Assembly (NCBI GenBank): GCA_049999805.1
Contig: JBNGIO010006129.1
Coordinates: 162,276 to 203,308, forward strand
Reading direction: 5' to 3'
DNA length: 41,033 nt
DNA from: Folioceros fuciformis
Lineage: Eukaryota
Position 1 is the first letter of the stretch. Each line of letters begins with the position of its first letter. Positions 7,007-40,999 of this stretch are shown one piece after another. The notes beneath the pieces were generated by a model that was given only the letters and a program-made list of their open reading frames with translations, was not told where the DNA came from and made no database searches. The position numbers and the translations under genes were made by a program.

Positions 7007-10000
7007 TCAGGTTAGAGCGAGTACTTGAGACACGGGAGACAGATCAGGTTTCTGAGTTTCCTTCCACATGACTGGAACTGTGAAGCTGTCGAACTTCCCC
7101 TGAGCTGGAAAATAGCCAGCCACGACCTTCCTTCCCCCGTATAGACGTCCATGCAAGGAGGTGGCTGCTACCAGCGCATATTCCTCCCGGCCGTACTCCA
7201 CAAAAATTTGGCCCCAGCTCTTGAGAGAAGTATCGCTCGTATGCCTTAAAGTGCTTGCTTGTTGGCTGGAGTCCGACCCATCTACGGCTTCACAGCTGCT
7301 TGCAATTCCGTTCGATTCGTCTTCCGTCGTCCGCTGGTTCTCTGTGAAGATTTCAAGCTCAGGTCGACATCCTAGCTCGTGGTCGTCTGTAGCTACTGGG
7401 AGGAGTGTGAAGGCTCTTACCTGTCATACCAGAGGGCGCCTTGGGCCTGGTGATGTGCATGGCTTTGATAGTGCCAAACCTGCCAAATGGGAGGCATGCA
7501 GACATGTGAGGGAGAAGTGCAAGTGAACGGCCCTGGGTCACGGGAGCCTAGGAAGCTGGGTCCCGAGCACGGGAGTACCTTGAACACTCTATCTTGATGT
7601 CCTCTATGTACTCAGCGACTTCCTCTTCTGACATGGACAAGAATTCCTCCTCCGAGACCTAGAGGTTCCCGCACCACAAACCCCAGCACAGCAACGGCTC
7701 ACTACATTTTGGGACGTCTGTTTCTCTCGGTTTTTGGAGAGGAAAGTTGAGGGGCAAACCAGGTTATGAAGTTCTACGATGCGAGTCGGAGGTTCCAAAA
7801 GCGGAACAGCAGCTTCTGGTATGCCGTAGAATGGGGTGCCTCTAGACTGCGATGGCCACTTTTCACCTTGGTTATCTTCAGCTCAGCACGGTGCTTCTTG
7901 CTAGTTAAGATGTCAAGAAAGTGAAAAACTTAAGCCAGCTGGTAGTCATCCGAGAAACCTGGGACAGGACGTCTGGCGTTGCTTGGACACATGTCAGCGG
8001 ATTGTTGGCAAGGCGTAATCCATTCAGGCCTGCACATGCTTTCAGAGTGACATCTGGATCCAAATACTGGGGCCAGGGTTACGGTACACTCGTAAGATTC
8101 CTTCGAAAGCATACACGAATACAGGACCAAAACAAAACCAGTGTCCTTCAACCCCGCTTCCAGGACTTGCAAGCTTGAAATCACACAAAGAAGCGAATGC
8201 GTGAGATTTTACTGTGCGAGTTCGTGCTTTCTATCCTATCCCCCGATCTGCAGGGAGGAAGAGGTGAAAAACTTGCCTCAAAATAAACGTATCTCTTGGG
8301 AGGGAATTGGGTTAGTACAACTTCGCAGTGAAATGCTTTCAGCTGTCCGAACGACGTGACGATTTCTTTAACCTGGAGTGGGAACCAATTGCAGGATCAA
8401 CCCTCGGGCAATTCTCCAGTGCTGCAGTAGTAGGTAGGAAGCTGACACCCATATCAAAGTTCTGGAAGTGCTCACAGCACGTACCTTTTCTGGTGATAGG
8501 GACGAGGCTATGCCTCCTAGAAATATCTGTCATCAGGAAAGCACAGGTACAGGTAAATACGAAAGTAGCTGAAGTAGCCCTGTAACGGGCGGGAGATGCT
8601 TTCACTACACCAAGCTTCTTCATGAGTCTCCACAATTGACGAGATGATCAATTTGGGGGCTTTTGATTTGAGTTACATTTCAAAGACACAATTGCAGACC
8701 ACGACCGAATAACAACCTTGCGTGGAGAGTCCGGCACCACGTTGGATACGAGGTTAGGAGCAGCGATGGTGGGAAGATTCTGTACCACAAACAGCGCTGT
8801 TAGGCAGGAGCCCTTGCACGGTTTGAATAGCCGAATCACTAAAGCAAGTCGAAACAATTATCCTCAGCGATCTAAACACAAGATATTATCCTACATGATT
8901 TGGCATCAGAAAGCGGAGGACTGGTGCAAATGTCTACCACAGGGTGCACGTAGTCTTTTGGCCTCCTGAGCTTCACGACTGTTCCATGCAACATAACACC
9001 ATCAAATGCGAGAGCAGCAGTAGTATCCTCAGGCGAAATGAATTCAGCAAAGGCATAGTTCTTCTCAGGATGGACCTGTCCAAAACAGCAGACACGGAAG
9101 CACCTGAGCAATGTGTGGTCAGCTACCGAACTAACAAATCGAAAAGACAAGCCCACCACGAGTGGCCAACACAGGCAGGATTGCTGCACAGCAACATCTG
9201 CGTCTTACTGTGCAGCTGATACAGGGCTTAGTTCCCGGGATACTGTTGATGTTGGCAGACAGTAGAGCTGCGTTCATGAACTCCAGAAACTCTCCATCCG
9301 ATACGGTGGATGGCACGTTTCCAGCATACAGCCTCCTGATGGACCGAGTGGCTTGAGTCAGAGTTAGAGACACCACCGGAACCATGAGTTGCTGCTGGAG
9401 AGCTGTGACTACCAAAGGATTGCCAGCTCCAAAAGGGGTACTGGGGAGTGGCACAGGAACCCCAGCAGCTGTATTCTGCACAGCACCACCTTGCTGAGCC
9501 TGTTGTGTAAGAGCTGCATCCCCTACAACCGGGGGCAGGTCCCAAGCACGGGACTTCTTCCTTTCGGGAGATCTCGTAGGCGGGGAGGGTGTGCTTGTGA
9601 CATCTCTTGACCTACGCCTCCTCGGGGAGTACCCGCCGAGCCCGCTTGATCCTCCTCCATACTTATGATACCGTGAGTCGTCTTCTTCCTCTCGACTGTC
9701 GCTTCTGCGGGAATGGGATTGCATTTTGTCGAACCTGTGCCTGCGAGGAGGAGGGAACTCCAAGCCTTGATCATCGTCGTACCTTCGACCATGAGGTCTT
9801 TCCGACCAACTGAATCTATACGACCTCCCCCTTGCACCATAGCCGAATCTCCCTCTCCGTCCATACCCGTCATGCCATCGAGGTGACCAGTCATAGGATG
9901 ATCTTCCAGAGTGCCTGTCGTAGCGTCCGTGGATAAAATTGTGCGCCCCTCTGTCCCAATACCTCCTTGGACGACGGAGGCCTCTGTAATAGCGTCCACC

Positions 10001-11995
10001 ATGGTGTTTGTGACGATCAGAGTCGCTGCTGGGACTCGAGCTTCTCGAGCTTTTGGAGCGTGAACTCTTGTCACTGACCGACACCGAGCTTCGACTGGAG
10101 CGACTTCTTTCCCTTCTGCGCCTTCTCCTTCTCCGTCTCCTCAGAGCCTCCAAAACGCTCTGATCGGTGTCCGAGCGTTGCGCCCCGTCCGATTCCTCGC
10201 TGGCTGCCTTCTCCGAGTCCTGCCCACTGCTGCCGATGTCTTGGGACTTGGCACTACGAGGACTGCGCTTGCCATTGCTGTCACTTGCAGCCGGAACGGC
10301 CTGGGAGTCGGTATTCTGGGCGGACGGCTCATCCTCAACCTGACGCTCTACGCTGCTGGCCTTTTCTTTCCTGTCTGTCGGAGAGCAGGGATCCTGCTTG
10401 GCATCCAGCGAGCGAGACTGCGTGCATGCTTCTTCGTGTGATTCTGCGGGAGAAGGAGGGACGTCTTGAGCAATTGTGTTTTGTATGTCATCTGGTGGGC
10501 AACCTTCTTCAGTACTGCGTGGCGCCTCAGGTCCAATCGGGGTTGGTACCGCTCCCTCTTGGCTGCTGCACTTCTTGTTCTCGATCGGGGGACTATCTTC
10601 TTGCCTGGGAGACGTGACCAGTGTTTGACCAAAAGGTTTTACAGTGCCGGTGTCTTTCTTCATGCCGGCATCAGATATGCAGGTGGTTGGTTGAACAGGC
10701 GGTCTCACCTTGACATTGCCCTGCTTCATCTCGCCATCAGCTATGCTGGTCGCAGATGAAACCGGTGTTGGAACAGGTGTTTTTACCTTGCCGTTGTCTT
10801 TCTCAATCTGGACATCAGATACGCAAGGATTCTCTCCGGGTCGTTGACTGACATCTCCATCCTTCCCACTGGAACTGGATTCCAGGGTGATAGCCGAATG
10901 CCCACCGGAATCAGACTCCCGAGGACGCCCCACTTGTTTGTCCTCGTTTAGGGCTGTCTCCTCACCAGACCACCTGCTTCCGAAATGGATGCCACTACCA
11001 GCTTCCATTCCCATGGCCAGGGACTCCTCGTTTTCCACAATTGCAGCAGCAGAAGAAGCCACTGGTTCCTCCACGCATTGCTCCTTGTCACTGCCGCGAC
11101 GCACAGGTAATGTCTCATCTGGCACGGGTGGTTGCTCTGCTTCTTTGCTGCCTACTGCCTCCACAACCGATGGCGATGGTGTAGGCAGCTGCGAATAGAG
11201 AAGCCGTACTTCATCCAAACCTGCAGCAGAAGGGCCTGGTTCCTCCATGCATTCCTCCTTTCCACTGCCGCAGCCCACAGATACCGTCTCGTCTGGCACG
11301 GATTCTTGCTCCGCCTCTCTGCTGCTTCCCACCTCTACAACGGGTTGCAATGTTGTGTGCAGCTGAGAATAGAGAAGCCATTCTTTCTCCACAATCGCGG
11401 GAGAAGGGACGGCATCCTCGCATCCCTCATCTTCACTGCCGCCGGGCACAGGTAATGTGTCATCTGGCACGAAGGTTTGCTTTTCCTCCTGCTGCTCTTT
11501 CCCGCCGACTTCTGGCTCTCCAACTGATTGCGGTGCGTTGTGCAGCTGAGAGTAGAGGAGCCATTCGGCGTATATCAACTGCTCCATCTCGTCCTCGTCT
11601 CCGACAACAGGCTCCTTTTCCTGCCTTGCTCTTTTACTGCCTGTGTCGTCCTGGTAGTCGTCATCATGCTCGTTCTCATACTCATACTCACACTCAGAAC
11701 GATGATAGCCATCTCGGTGCCTTTCATGCCTCTCAACAACCTCATCACCGGCAACATTTCTCCTCCTCCCCTCCTGTCTGCTCCCAGAACGTCCACTATG
11801 TTCCCGGCCGTGGTCTGATCTGACAGGCTTATGCCTTCCTCGCCGAGTCCCATCGCGGTGCTTATCAGAGTGTTCTCGATCTTTGTCACTCTCCTTGCCC
11901 TTTCTGCTGCCCCCTGCAGCTGGCATGTTTTCAGTCCGCTTCCTTGCCCAAGAAAATTCCTCACCCGTCTCTTCCTCCTCACGCCTGCTCTTCAT
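7007..11995 (-). CDS. U2AF large-subunit (U2AF65)-related splicing factor with a long N-terminal extension; exons 11995-9209, 9075-~8941, 8779-8717, 8526-8485, 8372-8277, 8066-7959, 7846-7760, 7658-7579, 7479-7421, 7341-7007
   Basis: RS-rich region and a KKSRAWD motif. RRM1: TQATRSIRRLYAGNVP...YAFAEF...ALAFDG...LRRPKDY. RRM2: KIFLGGI...FGQLKAF...VTLKACAGLNG. UHM-like RRM3: IVELHNL...EDIKIECSRFG...GQIFVEY...LHGRLYGGR. All exon phases are consistent. Confidence 0.9.
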
Positions 11996-30870: not shown

Positions 30871-32931
30871 ACAACCTGTTGAATGTTGTGTCGTGTCATC
30901 TTGTACTTTGGCAAAAGCGTAGAGTAGGTGGAAGGGATGTAATTGTAGTCTCTTCAGGTACTTGATATCTTGAAGAGGGGGAATTCTCTGTTCTTCTGTC
31001 CCTCAAGGATATGTTAGTTATCAGCAGTAGCAAGTTTTGGTAACTGTGCCCAGTAAGCTGCACAAGTAGCATCACTGGGTGCCAGCTCTCTCTAGTGCCA
31101 GGTAGCAAGCTGGCCTTGAGTAGGTCTCATTAGGGGGTTGTAAAATATAGACTGCAGCTATGATGCGCTGCAGGTTCAGCAGTGTTCGTATGCAACAGCA
31201 GCAGTCGGTGTTGTTTTCTATCGTGAGTTCCGTCCTGGTGCTGACAAGGTTGGTTATGATGCTTCAATGTTGATCTGCAGTGCTGGGTTTTGGTAGCGAT
31301 AAAGGTTTCCCAGGATGGGGGCTTTGTTGCCCGATTTCACATGAGCTGCTCTCTCGACAGCTGGTGTCCACGGTGGGCGCGCACATGGCAAGGATCACTG
31401 CAATATTTGCGATGCCCTGATTGCCCATCACGTGGTTACATCACGAGCATCCAACCGGTAAGCTCAAGAGACTGACCCAAAATAGCAGTTCACTCTCCGA
31501 GTTTTGTGCAACTGTTCCGAGATGCCAGATGGTCAGGTACTTCGCGGGGAATTTCGATTAACTGTACGTAGTCGTGCCTGTCTCTAAAAGCGACTTCACA
31601 GGTAAGCACACAGCACACGAGGGAGGGGGCATTGTGCACACAGCAGGCATGGGCCGCATGGCTGTGCGTATTTCTTAGAAAAGGAAATGCAGGGAGCTGG
31701 TGCAATTATGTTAAACTACGTGCCGTGACCCGTATCAAGGTCGATCATGTCTAATTCCGATTTACCTTTTGTGTGCACCATTACCTTGACTCTGCATCGG
31801 CCCCCTACTGTACATCATACGGGCAACCCGATTCTCGTGAATGCTTCGACGTCGGCACCAGGCACGCTTGCCTGGGTGGCACGATGCACTAGGCAGGCGC
31901 TCTGGCAGCTCGGGGGTGCGTGCATTGACGTGCCGAGGTGACAGCCTATATCCGCACATCATCATAGAGCTGGCTGCAGGAGTGACCCGGTTTTCAAAGT
32001 TTCTTCCGGCCGAGAGAAAGATCAGGGACGCCGGAGTTATCAAAGATGGAAGGTCGCAGAAGAGAAGCCGGGATGTTGATGCAGCCAATGATCATGCAGA
32101 TTTGGATCCTTTCCGCTTTCAAAGCTTTTAGCCAACGAGTCTGGGATTCATCGCAGGAGCTACGTCCGTATCGTGATGCAACTTGCATCCATGTCGCTCA
32201 TCTCGTACCTGTTGCAGCGGATGCCCTCGCACAGATGCCAAGACTCAGTGGTAGGTTAACTACTGTGCGTGTCTACACATACAGTGCGGTATGTTGCCTT
32301 TCCCAAGAGGAAGCTCCTCTTCCCAGAGACAAAACATACTCACCAGGTCTTCCAAACTAGGTGTAAGATTTAGCGAACAAGCTAGCTAGGCAGGTGGCGA
32401 AGTTGTAAATAGTGTTTACACCTGTCGTACCTTCCATCAGCATGAGCTGCCTCGCTTCATCCAGTTGTTTTGCCTCCAAACATGTCCATTCGCGGACTGT
32501 TCACATGCACCTACTACGCCTCTGGACAGTGTTGCTGCCCTTCGACATACAGTTGTGCTGCCTCCAAACAGTGTGTTGCTGCCGACCCCAAACCATGTGC
32601 TTTCGATTCTAATGAGAGTCATGGGTGCCAAGTTGTCTACCTTGACAGGCTAGATAGCCCCCGATTCCAACGAAAGTCACGGACTCCAAGTTGTCTGCCT
32701 TGACCGGCTAGATAGCCTTATGTCAGAGTGCTTGGCCAGGAGATTTACCTCCCTGTGTGCGACTGTGTCAGCCAGCTGCTGGTAGCCTGCTTGACTCCGC
32801 CAGCCGCGTTCCGCTTGAAGCTGAAGCAGCAACAGTGTGTGTCTCATGGCCACATGTACAAATCGGATACGCATTCCCGAACAACTAGGATCCTTCAGCA
32901 GGGCTAGTTACGGAGCATGTCCGTCAGTCGA

Positions 32932-34131
32932 TCAGCGGAATTCAACAAGGGCCCGGCCAAGCACCTTGCCTTGACTCAAGGCCAAGTAGGCCTGATCCGC
33001 CTCCTCCAGGCTGCATCTGTGGGTGACAGCAGACTTGAGATCGACGGCCCCTGCCTGCACCAAGGCGATGACACTGGGAAGATCCTGGCGAGCCCTGGCC
33101 CCGTAAGAGCCGATGATACGAATCTGCCTCCTCACGAGGCGGGTTATGTCGATGCCAGCCACTTCTCCGAACCTTGGCAACCCCACCATGACGGCCCTGC
33201 CCCCGTCCCGCACAGCCAGCGACGCCTGCACGAAAGTCGCAGCTTTCCCCAAGGCCTCCACCGCCACATCCACCCCCTTGCCGCCCGTGATTTCCCGGAT
33301 CCTCTCCACAGCATCCTCTTCGGCCGCATTCACCGTGTGCGTAGCCCCCATCTCCCGAGCCTTCTTCAGCTTGTCCTGGTCCACATCTACTGCCACCACG
33401 ACGGTGGCGCAGAAGGCCTTGGCCAGCTGCACGCAGCCGCTGCCGACCCCGCCCCCCCCAATCACCGCCACGCTCTCCCCAGCCCGTAGGTCCGCCGCGT
33501 TCCGCAACGCCCCGTACGCGGTGAAGATGGAGCACCCCATGATGGCCGACTCTGAGTACGGGAGCTCGTCGGGGAGCACCGCCACAGCCGAGGCCGGCAT
33601 GACGCAGAACTCCGCCAGCCCGCCCATGCTGTACATGGCCACCGGTCGCCCAGACCCCGCCAGGAACAAACGCGTGTGCCCGTCGTAGAGCGCGCCGTGT
33701 GCTCGGTTGTGGCGGAAGAACTGCTCGCACAGATCCTCCTGCCCCTTCACGCAGAAGAAGCATCCTCCGCAGGGCATGATAAACGCTCCCACCGCCCGGC
33801 TACCAATTGGGAGTCTCCCGCGAGTGACCGCGTCTGTCCCCGGCCCGTGCTCCACCACCTCTCCCGCCACCTCGTGCCCCAGCACTGCGGGCAGCGGGAA
33901 CGGCTGCTCCGCCTTCATCACATGAAGATCAGAGTGGCACACCCCGCACGCCTTCGTCCGCAGCAGCACCTCCCCCAACTGCGGCCGCGGAATCTGCAGC
34001 TCCTCGATCACCATGGCTTTCCCCGGCTCCCACAGCACCGCTGCCCGCATCCTTGAAGCTCCACCCGCCGCTGCTGCCGTCGCCGCGGAGCATTGCCGCC
34101 GCATCTGCATCAGCCAGCCCCATCTCCTCAT
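32932..34131 (-). CDS. Zn-dependent MDR alcohol-dehydrogenase-like oxidoreductase (GroES-like, HER2 type), intronless, with a probable mitochondrial presequence
   Basis: Catalytic Zn motifs CGVCHSD and GHE, structural Zn CGGCFFC..LC, and Rossmann VIGGGGVG. Blocks such as GAFIMPCG, YSMGGLAE and RIIGSYGARARQDLP match the plant HER2 group. The N-terminus is Arg/Ala-rich with no acidic residues. Confidence 0.93.
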   Translation of the reverse strand: MRRWGWLMQMRRQCSAATAAAAGGASRMRAAVLWEPGKAMVIEELQIPRPQLGEVLLRTKACGVCHSDLHVMKAEQPFPLPAVLGHEVAGEVVEHGPGTDAVTRGRLPIGSRAVGAFIMPCGGCFFCVKGQEDLCEQFFRHNRAHGALYDGHTRLFLAGSGRPVAMYSMGGLAEFCVMPASAVAVLPDELPYSESAIMGCSIFTAYGALRNAADLRAGESVAVIGGGGVGSGCVQLAKAFCATVVVAVDVDQDKLKKAREMGATHTVNAAEEDAVERIREITGGKGVDVAVEALGKAATFVQASLAVRDGGRAVMVGLPRFGEVAGIDITRLVRRQIRIIGSYGARARQDLPSVIALVQAGAVDLKSAVTHRCSLEEADQAYLALSQGKVLGRALVEFR

Positions 34132-34822
34132 TCTCGTCCCTGTCGGATACCGAGCTCGGGTTCCCAGAGCTCCTTAGTCCCCCGTGGCAAGGAGCGGGGT
34201 TCCAACAGGGCTCGCACTCGGACATACTTCACCTTCCTGAAAGACGTTTCACAACCATATGTGGACAGATTTTGGACTTTTTGTGCGTAATGTTGCTCTG
34301 TCACGCTCGGATATGTCTCGACTCGTCGTCGGAGCTGGTTGGCGCGTACAGGCCGTGGACGAGATCGAGACTCGGTAAGGGACAAGTGGCTTAAGGAAAT
34401 GCGTCGACAGCAGGACCGCACGACGCGTGCCACCTCCAGCGCACGCCAACTTCCCGGTGTAGAAATCAATGCGTCACGTTACGTGCCTGACAGTGTTGTC
34501 TAACTTCATGGATATCCAAATACATCCGCCGGGTCCGCGTTTGCATGTGCTAAAGCGGTGAAAGCTCGAAAAAGTGGCAATCGAGGATTAGATGACGGCG
34601 GTACCAGCGGATGGGAAGTGCATGTGAAGGCACTGAAAAGAAATTGGTGTGATCTACTGGTTGTTACATCATGACGAATATCTTCCGGCATTGTGCAGCA
34701 TACAGCATTGCCGGGTCAAGCCAAATCAGAAAACTTGGCAAAGAAAACAAGCTGAGAGCTCCTGCTATGTCAATCCTATGAGCTCGGTGGGGTGACATAC
34801 AACTGCAAACGCACAACGAGCT

Positions 34823-35434
34823 CTAAAAGACACCGAAAAATGGGAACAGCTGCACAAACGGAGCGGCCACCAGCAGAATGAGGCCGATAGTGACCGGGAT
34901 GCCCTTCGTCTCCGCGAACGCCTTCCTGAAGCCGCCGGCAGCGTTGATGTGCTCGTAGAGGAGATAGGCACTGATACCCAGGCTGATGAAGATGGCCAGG
35001 GCAGAGTAGCGTCCTACGGCGCTGCCGTAAGCGAGGAAGTAAGGGGAAACAACCACAAGAAGGATAAGGGCCGCTGGAAGCTCCAGCACGTCGGGGAAGT
35101 GACGGGGGAAGAAAAGCTTGAGCACCACGGCGATGAAGGCGATCACCTTGCCGAAGGTTCCCCACAGCCAGTTGAAGATGAGGTCCGGAAGGTTGATGAA
35201 GAGGTAGGGAATGAGCAGCGCGGTAAGGAAGTTGGTGCGCCAGTTGGTGCGATCCAAGATGAGCAGGTAGACGGCGGCGAAGAAGGCCAGCCACAGCAGC
35301 CCGCCTGCGGCCCACGAGGCCTGCAGCACCTGGCCAGTGTGCATCGCTAGGTTGTTGACGGCCGTGGCCAGCGCCTGGACGTCGTCACTGAGCCCGTCAG
35401 TGCGCTGCGCAATGAATGTCCGCTGGAGACCCAT
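34823..35434 (-). CDS. COR413-PM: Cold-regulated 413 plasma-membrane protein (WCOR413 family), intronless
   Basis: Signature AAVYLLILDRTNWRTN.LT.LL.PY...LFFPRHFPD.LELP...YLL.EHI.A.GGF, with several hydrophobic helices. Confidence 0.95.
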   Translation of the reverse strand: MGLQRTFIAQRTDGLSDDVQALATAVNNLAMHTGQVLQASWAAGGLLWLAFFAAVYLLILDRTNWRTNFLTALLIPYLFINLPDLIFNWLWGTFGKVIAFIAVVLKLFFPRHFPDVLELPAALILLVVVSPYFLAYGSAVGRYSALAIFISLGISAYLLYEHINAAGGFRKAFAETKGIPVTIGLILLVAAPFVQLFPFFGVF

Positions 35435-35683
35435 GTCAATCCGCTCTCAAGCAGGCTCGGCGGGGGAGGGTGGAGATGGTCGGGGACAGTGCAGCGAAGA
35501 CAGCAACAACGGAGCGAAGAGGATGGAGAATGGAGAAGCTCACCTCTCGAAGAGGAATGTTCGCGCTTTTAAATGGACGCAAATTCGGGTCCAATAATAT
35601 CCCGGTCTGGTTGCTGATGGCTAGGGTATGGCTGCAATGTGGCCACCAGACGACAGGGCGCAGCGCTGGCGAGTTCATGGGAC

Positions 35684-35689
35684 CACGTG
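35684..35689. promoter_or_regulatory. G-box/ABRE-like CACGTG in the COR413/SdpI divergent spacer
   Basis: CACGTG lies 250 bp upstream of the COR413 ATG and reads GCACGTGG on the minus strand. A TTTAAAA TATA-like element lies near 35570. Motif match only. Confidence 0.4.
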
Positions 35690-36128
35690 CCGTGCTTTGG
35701 CCCCGTCCAGCTGGGGTCCCATGTTTCCAGCCAGCGCATGCTCGGGGCCAACGTTTCGGCTGAGCCTTCCCGCCTTCACTTCCCGCGCCGGGATCCGGGT
35801 GCTTACAATTCGGGCCCCGCCTCTGCTGCAAGCATTTTCAAGTCTCGAAGCTGGTACAGTAAAAATGCACATTCCAATCTGAATTTTGCATTTTATGGCT
35901 TCCGTGTTTTGGGCACGGACGGAATGACTGGTTGATGCAGGAGTGCTAGGCAGGGCAGGGGGGAATAAGCCTGTCCGTGTTGTGGCTGATAGACTTCGTT
36001 GCTCCTGTCGTGGTTTAGGGTGATGCGGTGCTGGAGGGCGTCATGAAGAGGTCGAGCATGAACGAGGAGAAGTGAGGGAGGAGGTTGAGCTCGGCAGCCC
36101 GTTCCGGGCGAGGAGGACGAAGGGCAAG

Positions 36129-36779
36129 ATGCAAGTCACGAGCTTCAAGGGGGTGCAGGCGGCTGTTTTCGCTGCGGTGCTGGGAGTGCTGTTGTCGCTG
36201 GGCTTCTTAGCATGGCTCCCGTCTTACATGGTCATATGGGGGATGCATGTGCCCCGCTTTGTGGGACTGTTTCTCATTCCCGTCGTGGGCTTGCTGCTCT
36301 CGGGGTTTCTCTCGCTCATTGTGAGCTGTGACCCGCATCTGGTTGACCATTCTTCCAACTCCCGCGCAGCCATTTGGGGTGTGGTGATTCTGCCTTCGGT
36401 GTTCGCAGTGCCGGCGCACGCTGTTGCGCTCTGGGCTAACGCCAGACACGAGGAACTCGGTCTCACCCCTTGGGTTTTTCTGTCGGGCTTGCTGCTCATC
36501 TATTTGGGAGTGATATTCAGGTATGTGGAGCAGAATTATGTGGTGGGCATCAGAGATGTGTGGACTCTCAGAAGCTCCGAGGTGTGGGAGGACACTCATC
36601 GCTGGGCTGCAGTGTTGTTTGTGATCTTTGGAGTTCTGGGCCTGGTGCTTACTTGGTTCGTGCCCGCCGGGTTCCTTCAGATAGTGACCATAGTAGGCCT
36701 CATTGTGGTCCCTAGTGTCATTTCCGTTGTGTATTCTTACATCATCAGGTCTGATAGATATCAGTACATTGTGAGGTAG
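36129..36779 (+). CDS. SdpI/YhfL-family multi-pass membrane protein (bacterial-type toxin-immunity family), CDS intronless, 216 aa
   Basis: About six hydrophobic segments. C-terminal signature G..FRYVEQNYVVGIRDVWTLRSSEVWEDTHR...F...G and terminal VYSY, versus the recalled bacterial pattern GN.LPK...NY.vGIRTPWTL..EEVW.KTHR...VYSY. N-terminal LP....W..LFLIP..DP resembles the DUF1648 region. Confidence 0.85.
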   Translation: MQVTSFKGVQAAVFAAVLGVLLSLGFLAWLPSYMVIWGMHVPRFVGLFLIPVVGLLLSGFLSLIVSCDPHLVDHSSNSRAAIWGVVILPSVFAVPAHAVALWANARHEELGLTPWVFLSGLLLIYLGVIFRYVEQNYVVGIRDVWTLRSSEVWEDTHRWAAVLFVIFGVLGLVLTWFVPAGFLQIVTIVGLIVVPSVISVVYSYIIRSDRYQYIVR

Positions 36780-37369
36780 GTTTGCCTTCCTTTATCGCTC
36801 TAAAAGACCTTTTCTAGGTACCTATTTGATATTTGGACGTCCTCCGAGCGCAACAGTATACCTATTTTGTAAGGATGAGTTTTCCAACTCTTGTGGTCTA
36901 CTGCCTTGATGAGCTGAGGACCTAGCACAAGGAGTTGTCCGTTGCTACACTCTCGTGTACATATTGTGGAACATTAAAATGTCTGCGTCAGACTTGCCCA
37001 TCTTACATTTCCTGTGCAGTTAGAGGCCCTGAAGTTAAGACAATCTACCGTGTGTTGGACAAAATCACTTTCAAACATTTGAGCATGGACATCTTGACAC
37101 GTCTGCCATCCTTTCATGCAAAGGCGTCGAAATTGAAGGACTCCCTTACATCTCATTTTTATGAAGCAAACCAGTTGGCTGAAGCCAGGTACATATACTG
37201 TCATTCGAACATGTGACAAACTGAGGAGAGTAAGACAGCCCCGCATGGATACCACAAGCGAAGCTGGTTGTCAGAAAGGCAAGGTGCTCGCTGGATGGCA
37301 CAAGGAGGCAGGGTTAGTCTGTTTGAGCGTCACTGATAGGTGGCCTACGTCGGTAGGTTAGAGAAAGGC

Positions 37370-37439
37370 TGGAAGAGAAAACAGCACCTGTCATTCCTGC
37401 TACTAAAAGCGATGGAAGAGAAAGCAGCACCTGTCATTC
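37370..37439. repeat. 27-bp direct repeat x2 (TGGAAGAGAAA[A/G]CAGCACCTGTCATTC), spaced 43 bp
   Basis: Copies at 37370-37396 and 37413-37439 with one mismatch. Confidence 0.92.
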
Positions 37440-37553
37440 ATGATACTGGACCTGCCGTGGACTAAAGCACACTTGGCACGTCATGGCCCGTGTTGCGCGG
37501 CTACCTGGACATATCACCTCAAGCCGGCTTGTTCATAGTTATGTGTGTATTTC

Positions 37554-37561
37554 TATAAAAA
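37554..37561 (+). promoter_or_regulatory. Candidate TATA box (TATAAAAA) of the NTF2-like gene
   Basis: Canonical motif 134 bp upstream of the ATG at 37688. Confidence 0.5.
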
Positions 37562-37687
37562 TCTTGGATGGCACGTACACTGCACCTTATTGTCCTCCCT
37601 CCCTGCGTGTCGGTGCGTTCCGCATTTACGCTACGGCATCTGCTCGCTCCTGCCACTAGGCAATCTGGTTTAGGGACGATCTTAGCT

Positions 37688-39053
37688 ATGGCCCAGCCCA
37701 CACATGAAGGTGTTACTCTGAGTTCTCGCTCATTTCCTCATTTGCAATATGCAGGCGCTCAATTGCTACCGCGGGGTGACCTTTTGGTGTTTGCTGTCCT
37801 GTTCCTGAAGAGGAGCCAGCTCAAAATGCTGAGGCCCCTACAGCTCGCCCGGCGGACGAGCAGAAACGACTTGGGAGCCTGGCCCGCAACATAATTCCTC
37901 ACGTTTTGAACCTGTGCATCTTCTCGCACCTTCTATCCTTACCTTTGAATGTTCATGTTCAAGTTCTCGTCTGAGTCCGAGTCCGAGTCCGAGTCCGAGT
38001 CCGAGTCCGAGTCCTCGGCTTGCATGTTACAGCCTAATCACTTCTCTACGCCCGTGCAGCTATAATTGTACAGCTACCGCAAGCGATTTCGACATCTACT
38101 CACAGGATGCCACCTTTGAAGATCCTCTCATGCGTGCCCGAGGGTAACATCTCTGCCTGTACCTCCATGCCAGGTGCTATGAAGTAGGTGGGAAGGAGCC
38201 TAGGTCGGTCAGTGACTTTATGTCGTCCTGGTTACTGCAGTGTCCCACAGATCAAGTCCGCATTCTATTCAATCCCTAAAGTAAGTGTCAGTCTTCTAGG
38301 CAGCGTCTGACGCTGCGTTCATCCTGAGAGACAGGAGTTCATGACTGTGGCAAGGTAAAAGCAGTTGAACTTGGCAGGTATTTAAAGAGGCTAAGCTCAC
38401 AGAGTATGAAGTTGAGGAGTCAGAAACAAGCTCCGGAACTGGAGAAGTGAGTTCTTTCCCGATGGTTCTTTCAGTTCTGTCGTCCCAAATAGTACACAAA
38501 TTATTCCGTGCCTCTTGTAAGCTAACCTACGCTCCATGCCTGGTGGCTTGTTTTGTTTTCGAGCAGATAAGGATCAAAAACCTGCAACATTATAAGATCG
38601 TGGGGCGACAAATCGACATGAATTCTCTCATCAAGCTGCAGGTCGGGAGTCCTAGTGCTGCTTGGCTGGTTGCATATTCAAGCTTTATACCCTCCAGTGT
38701 TCACTTTGGAAAATGGGCTGTTCACTGACAACAGGTTCAATCTGTCCCTTGCACCGGCTGATTCTTGCTGCCATCTGGACGCTGCAGGTTGAAAACGGTC
38801 TAGTTGTGAGGCATGAAGATCTGTACGTACATGTTCACCTCAAGCTTGTTATGCCACATCTTGTTATTGTCTCTTGCGTTTTCATGATTTCCTGTGCAAT
38901 CTTAGGTGGGATGAGAAACCCCTGTGGAATAAGGACACGATCAAGTGGCCCCTAGTCGGTCGTGCAGCGTCGGCATTGCGTCGAGGGAACATGTTCGTGA
39001 CTCATGCTCTCATGGGCTTTGGGAAGGATCCAAAGCCGAAGGCAGACAACTGA
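37688..39053 (+). CDS. NTF2-like (SnoaL-like) family protein, 8 exons
   Basis: Spliced product IIPHVLNLY.CTATASDFDIYSQDATFEDPLMRARGVPQIKSAFYSIPKVF...QHYKIVGRQIDM.SLIKL.VENG.VVRHEDLWDEKPL...THALMGFGKDP matches the conserved plant NTF2-like family. GT-AG phases are consistent. Confidence 0.9.
37973..38014. repeat. (GAGTCC)7 hexanucleotide microsatellite in an intron of the NTF2-like gene
   Basis: Read directly. Confidence 0.95.
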
Positions 39054-39795
39054 CATTAATCTCAGTAGTTCATAACTGCTCACGAATCCCTTGCCCGCTG
39101 TACATACAGTTACATGATCCTCTTTCGTGTGTACAAAAAATTGTGAAAAATGTGTGGCTGACCGTGGAAGTTCCGATTGCTCTCCATGGCTTTCAGTGTG
39201 CTACCGTGTCACATTTTGGTAAATCGTGTTACCAGTTGGCATGCACCTTAGAGTCTTTCCCTTGAAAGTGGAACCTCGACGAGGACAGAGCAGCCTTAGG
39301 CAAAACTTCATTCGTTGTCAACTTATCTCAAATTGAAACTTTTACAAAGCTTTTTCCTGCAAATATGAAGTATGATATTTCTATAACCAGGGCCACCTTG
39401 CGTAGACCCTGGTGCACTACCCCACTGGTAAATGGGCCAGATCGTGAAGCTGCCACTGTGCCCATGCACATGGGCATGAACATGAAATGTGGAGATTACT
39501 GAAGACAGCCTGAAACAAAACGAATGTTTCTGCCAACTGCGCAGCTCGGACACCTGGGACCTGGAAACAGGAAATGGCGTGCAGTGTGCACGCGGTCTTG
39601 CACCCCCAACTTACGGCATGGACATGGAAACATTTTAATCAGGTTATCCGGCGTACAAAATAGTAGCCAGAACACAGCTAGCAAGCAGGCAGGAGAATCC
39701 AAAGCAGGAAAGGAGAAGCCTCGCCATCACCTTATCTGGCGTACAGAATGATAGGAGTCAGAGCACAGCCAGAGAGCGGGAGTTGGACACGGAAT

Positions 39796-40999
39796 TCAAA
39801 GGGATGGAATGGAGAGCGATTCACTGCAGCCGGGGTGCGAGTGCATGCGTCGCATGAAGGCGACTTCCAGCTCCTCGCATTTCTCCCGTGTCGGGATGGC
39901 AACTGGTGCTGGGAGGATGGTGGGTGCTGGCGGCGCGTGTGCTAGCATGCGCAATCCCATCTCGTAAGCAGAGAAAATAGCAGCATTCACAATGTAGGCT
40001 CGCGCCACGGCCGCCCCTAGCCCTCGGAAAAGAACCGAGTACCCTTCCTCGCGCACGCTCTTAACGGCGCAGTCCAGAATGCCTGCATATCGGAGATTGG
40101 CACGAGTCTGGCCTTGTATCCTCGACTTGATCACGTCCAACGGGTAGCAGCACACCCAGCTCAACACCCCCGCAATGCCACCCGCGTTCAGCACCGTCAT
40201 TACGCTCTCCTTCCCCTCCTTCCTGCACCCCGGAGACAACGTCTCGCGGACGTACTCGTACGCGGCGAAGTAGACAGCGTGGCTGGGTGCGTCCCGCAAC
40301 ACGGTGATGGTGAAGCCGCGGTACAATCCCCGCAATCCTTCCGCCCGCCCAATGCTCTGCGCGAGCGCAAGCGAACCCTGTCGAGAATTTTCTGCCTGCC
40401 CCAAGCCAGTGGACAATCTTGAATCGACTTGGAGCTGTCGCCGAATTTTCAGCAGATCCACCGGCGTCAGCACGGTGGCCTGAAACGCCCCCGCCCCGGC
40501 GCCGGCGAGGGCAACCTTGGCGTACGATAATGGCTGGTCTGAGACGGAATTCGAGAGCGCGTCCTTCAGAAGTGCGAATGCTTGGAACGTGACCGCATTC
40601 TGCAGTTGTGTAACACACACGCCATTAGGCGGACTTCAAAACTGAAAAATGGTCTTGAACTTCGCTGGCTCACTCAATCCTGCAATCTGAAGGATTTAGG
40701 TGCATGGTTATGGCTGCTGGATGTTTTCCCACCTGGACAGCGATGGAAGCGAGGGGCGTGCCCATGCCCTTGAACAGGGCCAATCTGCCTTCGGACGCCA
40801 CCATTTTCCGTGCCACGGCGAATGGACAAACAGCCTCAGGCCCAGCGAATCGCTGCGGCTGCTGCAACCGGATCCTCACCGTGTCCAAGGGATGACCGCA
40901 CACAACGCCTGCCATTCCCCCCATGGCGCCAGCCAGAAACTCCTTCCCCCACGCTCCAAACACGAAGTCCCCCTCCCTCTGCTTCATGGACAGTTCCAT
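39796..40999 (-). CDS. BAC2: Mitochondrial carrier (SLC25), basic amino-acid carrier BAC2-like; join(40999-40733,40599-39796)
   Basis: Three PX[DE]XX[KR] motifs (HPLDTVRIR, TPVDLLKIR, YPLDVIKSR). Subfamily blocks WGKEFLAG, ITVLRDAP.H.VYF, YEYVRE.L.PGCRK and ARAYIVNAAIF. One GT-AG intron. The start codon is close to the window edge. Confidence 0.9.

Follow-up and report, generated by a model that had tools for sequence, protein, structure and literature searches.

How does a gene of a family that has been treated as bacterial come to lie among plant genes, and what might its product do there? The question is raised by a 41,033-nt stretch of the Folioceros fuciformis contig JBNGIO010006129.1 (referred to as the window; residue numbers are those of the window protein), in which an open reading frame (ORF) of 216 codons encodes a membrane protein of the SdpI family. 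Only one member of this family, SdpI of Bacillus subtilis, is described as characterised in the excerpts of PMC11995493, which, like PMC2910880 and PMC12711439, is cited here from excerpts. This protein provides immunity and signal transduction in the SdpC-SdpI-SdpR pathway (Ellermeier et al. 2006, via PMC2910880 and PMC11995493). The family is treated as bacterial, and the string 'eukaryot' occurs 0 times in PMC2910880. Full-text literature searches turned up no account of an SdpI-family protein from a plant or any other eukaryote, although the supplementary gene lists of large plant gene-transfer surveys may list one.

The locus probably represents a nuclear gene that functions in a non-seed land plant, and that descended from a bacterial SdpI-family gene and was rewired in plants. 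This reading builds on the family membership, a six-helix fold (as a model), the plant context, transcription and splicing, a small plant clade and the constraint on the sequence, all of which are shown.

A transcribed and spliced plant member of the SdpI family

The ORF runs from an ATG at 36129 to a stop codon at 36777-36779, and its translation contains QNYVVGIRDVWTLRSSEVWEDTHRW, VVYSYII and LPSYMVIW. A profile hidden Markov model (HMM) check confirmed what had been proposed from the sequence alone: the product scores 52 bits (E 7.9e-14) with the Pfam family SdpI/YfhL (PF13630), whose cut-off is 28.2, residues 134-203 aligning with positions 3-71 of the 71 in the profile. Its relatives P0002, P0014, P0311 and P0016 score 48-51 bits each. 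A scan of the SdpI-family protein against NCBIfam gave no match above cut-off, and an exact look-up of three window proteins in the protein collection returned no identical entry. All six coding sequences that were compared are intact. The ratio of non-synonymous to synonymous substitution rates (dN/dS) lies at 0.19-0.23 between Sphagnum-type copies, which are separated by 13-14 differences only, and at 0.14-0.28 in deep pairs, in which dS is saturated. Judged from these comparisons, purifying selection acts on the gene.

The AlphaFold2 model, based on 112 aligned sequences, has a mean predicted local distance difference test score (pLDDT) of 93.3 and a predicted template modelling score (pTM) of 0.88. 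It contains long helices at residues 6-25, 43-66, 76-105, 113-130, 150-174 and 182-215 and a small hairpin at 33-42, and a hydropathy scan agrees with a topology of six transmembrane segments (TMSs). The positive-inside count, taken with the family topology (PMC2910880), suggests that both ends and the TMS4-TMS5 loop face the cytosol. Because helix 1 starts at residue 6, a transit peptide appears to be absent, and the protein should therefore enter the secretory pathway. A sequence search of solved structures reached a best E of 0.11, Foldseek against PDB returned 0 matches at E<=0.001, and the wide VIA-align comparison peaked at Z 7.7 with none at Z>=8, a range that is common for helical models. 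These results name no relative by fold, nor do they show the fold to be new.

Three public sequencing runs of one organism contain the stretch. X1 and X3 are DNA from one sample, possibly the source, and X2 comes from another sample and study. The RNA label of X2 is the guess of a tool. Only its joints and contig spans were used, not depth. The run contigs, which carry neither strand nor local depth, were compared over window positions 32500-40900. Eight GT..AG joints and one CT..AC joint occur in X2 and in neither DNA run, so X2 holds spliced transcripts. Seven of the joints fall in the downstream gene, one in a carrier gene and one, at 35852>36018, ahead of the SdpI-type ORF. A single X2 contig of 2223 nt (record 10) covers 34619-35852 together with 36018-37005, and takes in the divergent neighbour COR413 as well as the spliced leader, complete ORF and trailer of the SdpI-type gene. 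Since it spans both genes, the divergent COR413 and SdpI-type transcripts overlap or abut. The protein cannot begin in leader exon 1, because an in-frame stop lies 108 nt upstream of the main ATG. The SdpI-type gene is a plant nuclear gene, transcribed and spliced. The sequence-only reading had called it an intact, intronless ORF of 216 residues; integrity, length and the quoted sequence strings hold, whereas the lack of introns is true of the coding part only, since the leader is interrupted by an intron of 165 nt.

Leader exon 2 also contains two small upstream ORFs (uORFs; 36023-36075), one of 7 codons from an ATG at 36023 and one of 10 codons from an ATG at 36043, which might damp translation of the main ORF. 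The GC content at third codon positions (GC3) of the ORF is 0.668, within the 0.543-0.809 of its neighbours. Introns at the locus measure 83-165 nt, and the GC content is about 52%.

Relatives and origin of the plant branch

The closest relatives form a small group. Of 3255 candidates in a word-indexed search, 11 proteins reached E<=1e-3, with P0002 (216 residues) 69% identical at full cover and the others at most 42% identical over parts of the query. An exhaustive HMMER scan of 1.84 billion representatives gave 2687 matches at E<=1e-3, of which 52 reach E<=1e-10 and 2 reach E<=1e-30; the matches listed are the best 150 of the 2687, most of them without a name. Both matches at E<=1e-30 are Sphagnum-type, namely P0014 (47% identity) and P0015, a truncated metagenome copy. 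The cluster of P0014 consists of 'hypothetical protein' entries of S. fallax, S. magellanicum, S. jensenii, S. balticum and S. troendelagicum, encoded on contigs of 16-30 Mb. The next match, P0016, has 241 residues and 36% identity. Below it, among the matches listed, the proteins are bacterial-type and at most 36% identical, and the few that are named belong to Myxococcales, Anaerolineales and candidate-phyla bacteria.

When a profile of the plant-type sequences was used as query, no further member came up (12 matches at E<=1e-8, 8000 candidates scored). In metagenomes, four Sphagnum-type loci were recovered together with one more, L005, which carries a moss-like gene and from which it follows that at least one further plant lineage has the gene. 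With one genome searched for each prokaryote species, 30 loci were found across many phyla, including one archaeon; the best match comes from a Myxococcales metagenome-assembled genome (MAG), with 33% identity over residues 42-212, and none of these 30 named loci is cyanobacterial. The nearest protein-atlas clusters are 100% Bacteria in 5/5 listed. Relatives outside the tiny plant clade are prokaryotic among the matches listed, in keeping with the earlier description of the family as mainly prokaryotic. A possible fungal SdpI, suggested by a mention of DUF1648 in PMC7329392, was rejected, as it is one entry in a long list of incidental domain matches.

In a quick tree of 83 rows, the window protein groups with P0002 (support 95), then with Sphagnum (92) and then with P0016 (99), and the plant clade with P0016 sits on a long stem against a star that comprises 77 bacterial-type rows. 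In a careful tree with 45 rows, 14 named prokaryote proteins and L005 among them, four plant-type rows unite at 100/95; P0016 joins them at 100/98, and the Myxococcales MAG protein comes next at 99/87. Because the relatives outside the plant clade are prokaryotic, transfer from bacteria into the plant lineage is the best reading and is well supported; its direction and a single origin are inferred. As the trees read, the plant clade would have one origin from within bacterial diversity. A single origin is also supported by features common to 4/4 plant-type proteins, namely the short first loop, E134, D143 and the end YQYIVR, which is identical in all four and occurs in 0/107 bacterial-type relatives. 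A myxobacterium-like donor is a lead suggested by the trees and not a result, and neither donor nor date of transfer is well supported. The candidate for horizontal transfer put forward from the sequence alone thereby gains support, its relatives beyond the plant clade being prokaryotic and the gene lying in plant DNA.

Bacterial gene transfer into early land plants is known but contested (PMC12711439), and two other accounts of the origin have to be weighed. Bacterial contaminant DNA mis-assembled into a plant contig could be suspected from the intronless coding sequence and the bacterial character of the family. This is already refuted by the contigs and has a vanishingly small probability: the GT..AG intron of the leader is spliced, the ORF and COR413 lie on one contig in an independent sample, and DNA contigs reach both neighbours (X1 record 3, 34064-38002; X3 records 18 and 19 over the flanks). 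In addition, homologues lie on Sphagnum chromosomes of 16-30 Mb, and prokaryote proteins are at most 36% identical among the matches listed. The same contigs settle three statements of the sequence-only reading in its favour, namely that contamination is unlikely, that the ORF is physically linked to its plant neighbours, and that it lies between COR413 (PF05562, upstream) and a spliced gene (seven GT..AG joints, downstream). Vertical inheritance of an ancient eukaryotic or plastid-derived gene, with loss from the majority of plants, is very unlikely. It could account for the derived features common to at least two deep plant lineages, that of the window and Sphagnum, with saturated dS, and loss is often the eventual explanation of a patchy distribution (PMC12711439). 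However, the 1.84 billion representatives include only the two Sphagnum-type matches at E<=1e-30, the plant-type profile search added none, cyanobacteria account for 0/30 of the named prokaryote loci, and the nearest atlas clusters are bacterial throughout (5/5 listed). Transfer from bacteria is accordingly retained as the preferred account of origin.

Remodelled loops and the proposed role

Two loops of the family have been proposed to meet its partners: motif 1, the external TMS1-TMS2 loop, would bind SdpC, and motif 2, the cytoplasmic TMS4-TMS5 loop, would bind SdpR (Povolotsky et al. 2010, PMC2910880). Both are altered in the plant proteins. The span from P31 to P51 measures 21-22 residues in the four plant-clade proteins, against 28 in P0016 and 26-34 in 107 bacterial-type proteins (28 in 83/107). 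The plant loop is 6-7 residues shorter, the near-invariant H of the family is missing from it, and the H-W-N..G..DG core is lost. The profile of DUF1648 (PF07853), a domain that goes with SdpI in most relatives, gives no match at E<=1 for the window protein or at E<=0.01 for P0002, P0014 and P0311, and it does match P0016 and the bacterial protein P0003. A shortened loop after the first helix had been noticed in the sequence alone, and both the loop lengths and the DUF1648 check on the four plant-clade proteins agree with it.

In its bacterial form, motif 2 reads ..PN[YW]F[VI]GIRTPWTLS..EVW.KT[HN]R.. (PMC2910880). The window protein keeps N136, G140, I141, R142, W145, T146, L147, V152, W153, T156 and H157. 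Around these residues the loop has changed: position 134 is K or R in 81/107 bacterial-type proteins and E in plants, and T143 (93/107) and P144 (98/107) are replaced in plants by D followed by V, I, L or P (D-V in the window protein). The charge of residues 131-160 is -1, -1, -3 and -3 in the plant proteins, compared with a bacterial mean of +2.77 and with +4 in P0016; only 2/107 bacterial-type proteins go as low as -1. At the C-terminus, the Y-Q-Y-I of the plant tail presumably fits the Y-x-x-hydrophobic sorting pattern. On the alignments, the features tied to both known partners are lost or rewritten and the invariant cytosolic core is held.

An SdpR gene is also absent around the plant genes. 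An SdpR-family gene lies directly upstream in 7/16 prokaryote loci examined. Four of these seven reach the NF033789 cut-off, and a local HMM adds L016 (just under it) and two more; this HMM was built from five bacterial SdpR neighbours, so 5/7 of the loci found are its own training set. At E<=10 it found nothing in 892 six-frame pieces of the window and nothing in 1222 pieces of loci L001-L005, and the earlier remark that the window lacks sdpR stands (0/892). Because SdpR lies upstream in 7/16 prokaryote loci and at none of the plant loci, the ancestor was probably half of an sdpR-sdpI pair. Furthermore, most bacterial members of the family occur without a known SdpC according to the excerpts of PMC2910880 and PMC11995493, so immunity may not be the general role of the family. 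TrpP of Corynebacterium glutamicum, a member from an organism without SdpC and SdpR, has been proposed to bind another protein (PMC11995493).

Under the preferred reading, the gene would have originated from an operon of the sdpR-sdpI type, of which the membrane protein alone was kept. It would have acquired the features of a plant gene, namely a spliced leader intron, small uORFs and a host-like codon composition, and diverged together with the Sphagnum genes. The external TMS1-TMS2 loop would have been cut by 6-7 residues with loss of its H-W-N..G..DG core, the cytosolic TMS4-TMS5 loop would have turned from basic to acidic while holding the invariant N, GIR, WT, VW and TH, and a new cytosolic tail ending in YQYIVR would have been added. 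As for the activity that remains, it is tentatively proposed that the protein may no longer be an SdpC-like toxin receptor or immunity factor and may instead form a platform anchored in a membrane of the secretory pathway, with its conserved cytosolic loop binding some plant protein that is not SdpR. This reading, a platform for binding or signalling, is favoured because the partner-linked features are lost and the cytosolic core is held, with TrpP as precedent. A fuller scenario would be unlikely as a whole. It comprises a single capture of a toxin-immunity or signalling protein before the hornwort-moss split, the cutting of the toxin loop, recharging of the repressor loop for a plant partner, addition of a sorting tail, and recruitment, in the hornwort-like lineage, as a divergently transcribed partner of COR413, a cold-regulated membrane protein. 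If it were true, the protein would constitute a module for membrane stress or signalling that is specific to bryophytes and descends from bacteria.

Retention of the B. subtilis role, in which the protein would bind an SDP-like membrane-active peptide at its outer face and protect or signal to the plant cell, is decidedly improbable. The plant protein is a true member of the SdpI family with the conserved core residues kept, and bryophytes live among soil bacteria that make peptides. Yet it is the loop proposed to bind the toxin (PMC2910880) that is 6-7 residues shorter and lacks the near-invariant H, DUF1648 is matched in none of the 4/4 plant-clade proteins although P0016 and bacterial P0003 match, no SdpR is found at the window or at L001-L005, and even most bacterial members are without a known SdpC (excerpts of PMC2910880 and PMC11995493). 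The sequence-only suggestion that the gene protects against or senses microbial membrane-active peptides thus finds no support, with the toxin-facing loop shortened, DUF1648 unmatched and the cytosolic loop remodelled. A role shared with the head-to-head COR413 gene, as a co-regulated pair of membrane stress genes (cold or dehydration) with a common bidirectional promoter region, is also on the unlikely side. The two start codons, one on each strand, are separated by 694 nt, both genes fall within one transcript contig, and a single palindromic G-box, CACGTG, stands between them at 35684-35689 (two-strand count 2 against 0.17 expected from the window density). P0002, the 69% SdpI relative, and P0186, a COR413 protein, are each encoded on one Logan contig with a length of 5588 nt, and from this equal size the pairing is probably conserved in a second species. 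However, the argument from contig size is indirect, a single motif is weak, and adjacency alone is poor evidence of joint function. Counts of the dehydration-responsive element (DRE) core and of the abscisic acid-responsive element (ABRE) in the intergenic region are at chance level. Neither COR413 nor any other window gene was found within 10 kb of the Sphagnum-type gene at L001, L002 and L004. A complex prediction for COR413 and the SdpI-family protein scored 0.00 with controls not run and is evidence neither way.

Several points weigh against the preferred reading of a bacterial gene rewired into a working plant gene. The charge reversal could mean that binding by the cytosolic loop was lost and that no new partner was gained. 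X2 is called RNA only by guess, and its contigs give neither strand nor level. Weaker eukaryotic members could be hidden among the 2687 HMMER matches, of which the best 150 are listed, most without a name. On nesting within a bacterial clade, named in the sequence-only reading as support for transfer, the trees speak both ways: the plant clade holds together (92 and 100/95) with a Myxococcales neighbour (99/87), but both trees are unrooted, and the Myxococcales protein lies within the star in the 83-row tree and adjoins the plant clade only in the 45-row tree. P0016, the sister to the plant clade, has no assigned origin and a long branch (1.59-1.95). Finally, a re-analysis kept only 29.3% of published plant interkingdom transfers as consistent with transfer (PMC12711439, from excerpts).

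What is new is that the SdpI family has a branch in eukaryotes, in which both of the loops that face its partners are remodelled and whose plant members stand in databases only as Sphagnum 'hypothetical protein' entries. Having apparently dropped both known partners as well as the toxin-facing loop, this branch is a natural experiment on the family, which points to the invariant cytosolic N/GIR/WT/VW/TH loop as the seat of the core activity. It also offers a clean, contamination-proof case for the debate on how much bacterial DNA the early land plants retained. A hornwort-like lineage and Sphagnum have the gene, and no copy turned up in the model moss, liverwort or vascular plants; this patchy spread bears on the choice between an ancient gain with many losses and later transfers. 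As long as no phenotype is attached to the gene, the finding carries modest practical weight.

Neighbouring genes and comparison with known systems

The features of the locus are collected in Table 1.

Table 1. Features at and around the SdpI-type gene, in window positions unless a locus is named
Feature	Position	Strand	Basis or remark
SdpI-family coding sequence	36129..36779	+	216 amino acids plus stop, uninterrupted; contig of run X2 continuous over 36018-37005
Region with leader exon 1	35435..35853	+	covered by X2 contig running on into COR413; start site not mapped
5' leader spliceosomal intron, 165 nt, GT..AG	35854..36018	+	X2 joint 35852>36018 (cut +1); own strand of the ORF
Leader exon 2	36019..36128	+	two small uORFs; in-frame stop before main ATG
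3' untranslated region, about 226 nt	36780..37005	+	X2 contig (record 10) ends at 37005
Shortened TMS1-TMS2 loop, codons 31-51	36219..36281	+	remnant of motif 1/DUF1648; beta hairpin modelled at 33-42
TMS4-TMS5 loop with motif 2 core, codons 131-160	36519..36608	+	net charge -1; basic residues and 'TP' pair replaced (E134, D143)
C-terminal tail R-S-D-R-Y-Q-Y-I-V-R, codons 207-216	36747..36776	+	sequence comparison
COR413 gene, head to head with SdpI-type gene	34823..35434	-	PF05562, E 5.6e-62
Downstream gene, eight exons, seven GT..AG introns of 83-146 nt	37559-39140	+	X2 joints at 37704-38906
Plant-clade gene at L005	L005:360-1016		1787-nt metagenome contig; 218 amino acids; 56% identity to Sphagnum, 48% to window protein; YQYIVR end

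The window COR413 protein is closest, among the matches listed, to P0186 (60%) and to a protein of the hornwort Nothoceros aenigmaticus from EukProt (60%), followed by ferns at 53-58% and seed plants at about 50%. In a COR413 tree of 62 of the 120 matches listed, which contains no moss or liverwort sequence, the window protein, P0186 and Nothoceros group at 100, apart from vascular plants. Taken with the intron lengths and the GC content, this one gene tree makes a hornwort the more probable source of the window. Other plant-type genes of the window encode a U-box/armadillo (ARM) protein with plant-specific PUB domains, a zinc alcohol dehydrogenase and a mitochondrial carrier.

The product of the downstream gene, labelled NTF2-like in the sequence-only reading, has 231 residues with a long N-terminal leader, whereas its last exon alone would give 48, and it presumably resembles plant DUF2358 proteins. 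Within an intron of this gene, at about 37977-38012, the contigs of all three runs break or end loosely and the word depth jumps (132 in X1); the site is a dispersed simple repeat of a GAGCCC-type hexamer, which reads as Ser-Pro repeats in one frame. The alcohol dehydrogenase (32932-34131, minus strand) has 399 residues, ADH_N and ADH_zinc_N domains, a GC3 of 0.805 and about 28 extra presequence-like N-terminal residues ahead of a second methionine. As one X2 contig runs without a break across 32500-34271, its gene has no intron; at 33455, X2 shows a C>A difference from the window. At 9131-11995 on the minus strand, a frame of 954 residues, rich in Arg/Ser/Asp/Glu repeats, ends in what resembles the start of an RNA-recognition motif; a gene of splicing-factor type probably has its large first exon here.

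Compared with B. subtilis SdpI, whose own sequence was not aligned and is taken from its description, the plant protein likewise belongs to PF13630, has six predicted transmembrane helices and carries N..GIR..WT..VW..TH in the loop between helices 4 and 5. It differs in lacking the motif-1/DUF1648 outer loop and an sdpR neighbour, in the reversed charge of the inner loop, in the YQYIVR tail and in being encoded by a spliced eukaryotic gene. The nearest non-plant relatives in the trees are bacterial and archaeal DUF1648+SdpI proteins of about 210-230 residues. These match the plant protein in length and architecture and are 23-36% identical to it over nearly the full length. Often they are encoded just downstream of an autorepressor of the SdpR family (NF033789), Peptoniphilus, Bacteroidia, Bacillaceae and Myxococcales MAGs being examples. 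Unlike the plant protein, they keep an outer loop of 26-34 residues, a basic inner loop (mean +2.77) and SdpR upstream (7/16).

TrpP of C. glutamicum, compared here by description only, is likewise a family member without SdpC and SdpR, and is proposed to contact a protein through the half that matches helices 4-6 (PMC11995493). It differs from the plant protein in having 3 helices and half the length, in being bacterial and in its link to Fe-S cluster and tryptophan physiology (PMC11995493). The closest counterparts are the Sphagnum genes (such as KAH8938003.1 of S. fallax and KAH9537550.1 of S. magellanicum; 218 residues), which are undescribed and, unlike the window gene, have neither a COR413 neighbour nor a shared gene within 10 kb. 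They belong to the same plant clade at 47% identity and have an uninterrupted coding sequence as well, and their proteins share with that of the window the short outer loop, E134, D143, the acidic inner loop and the YQYIVR end.

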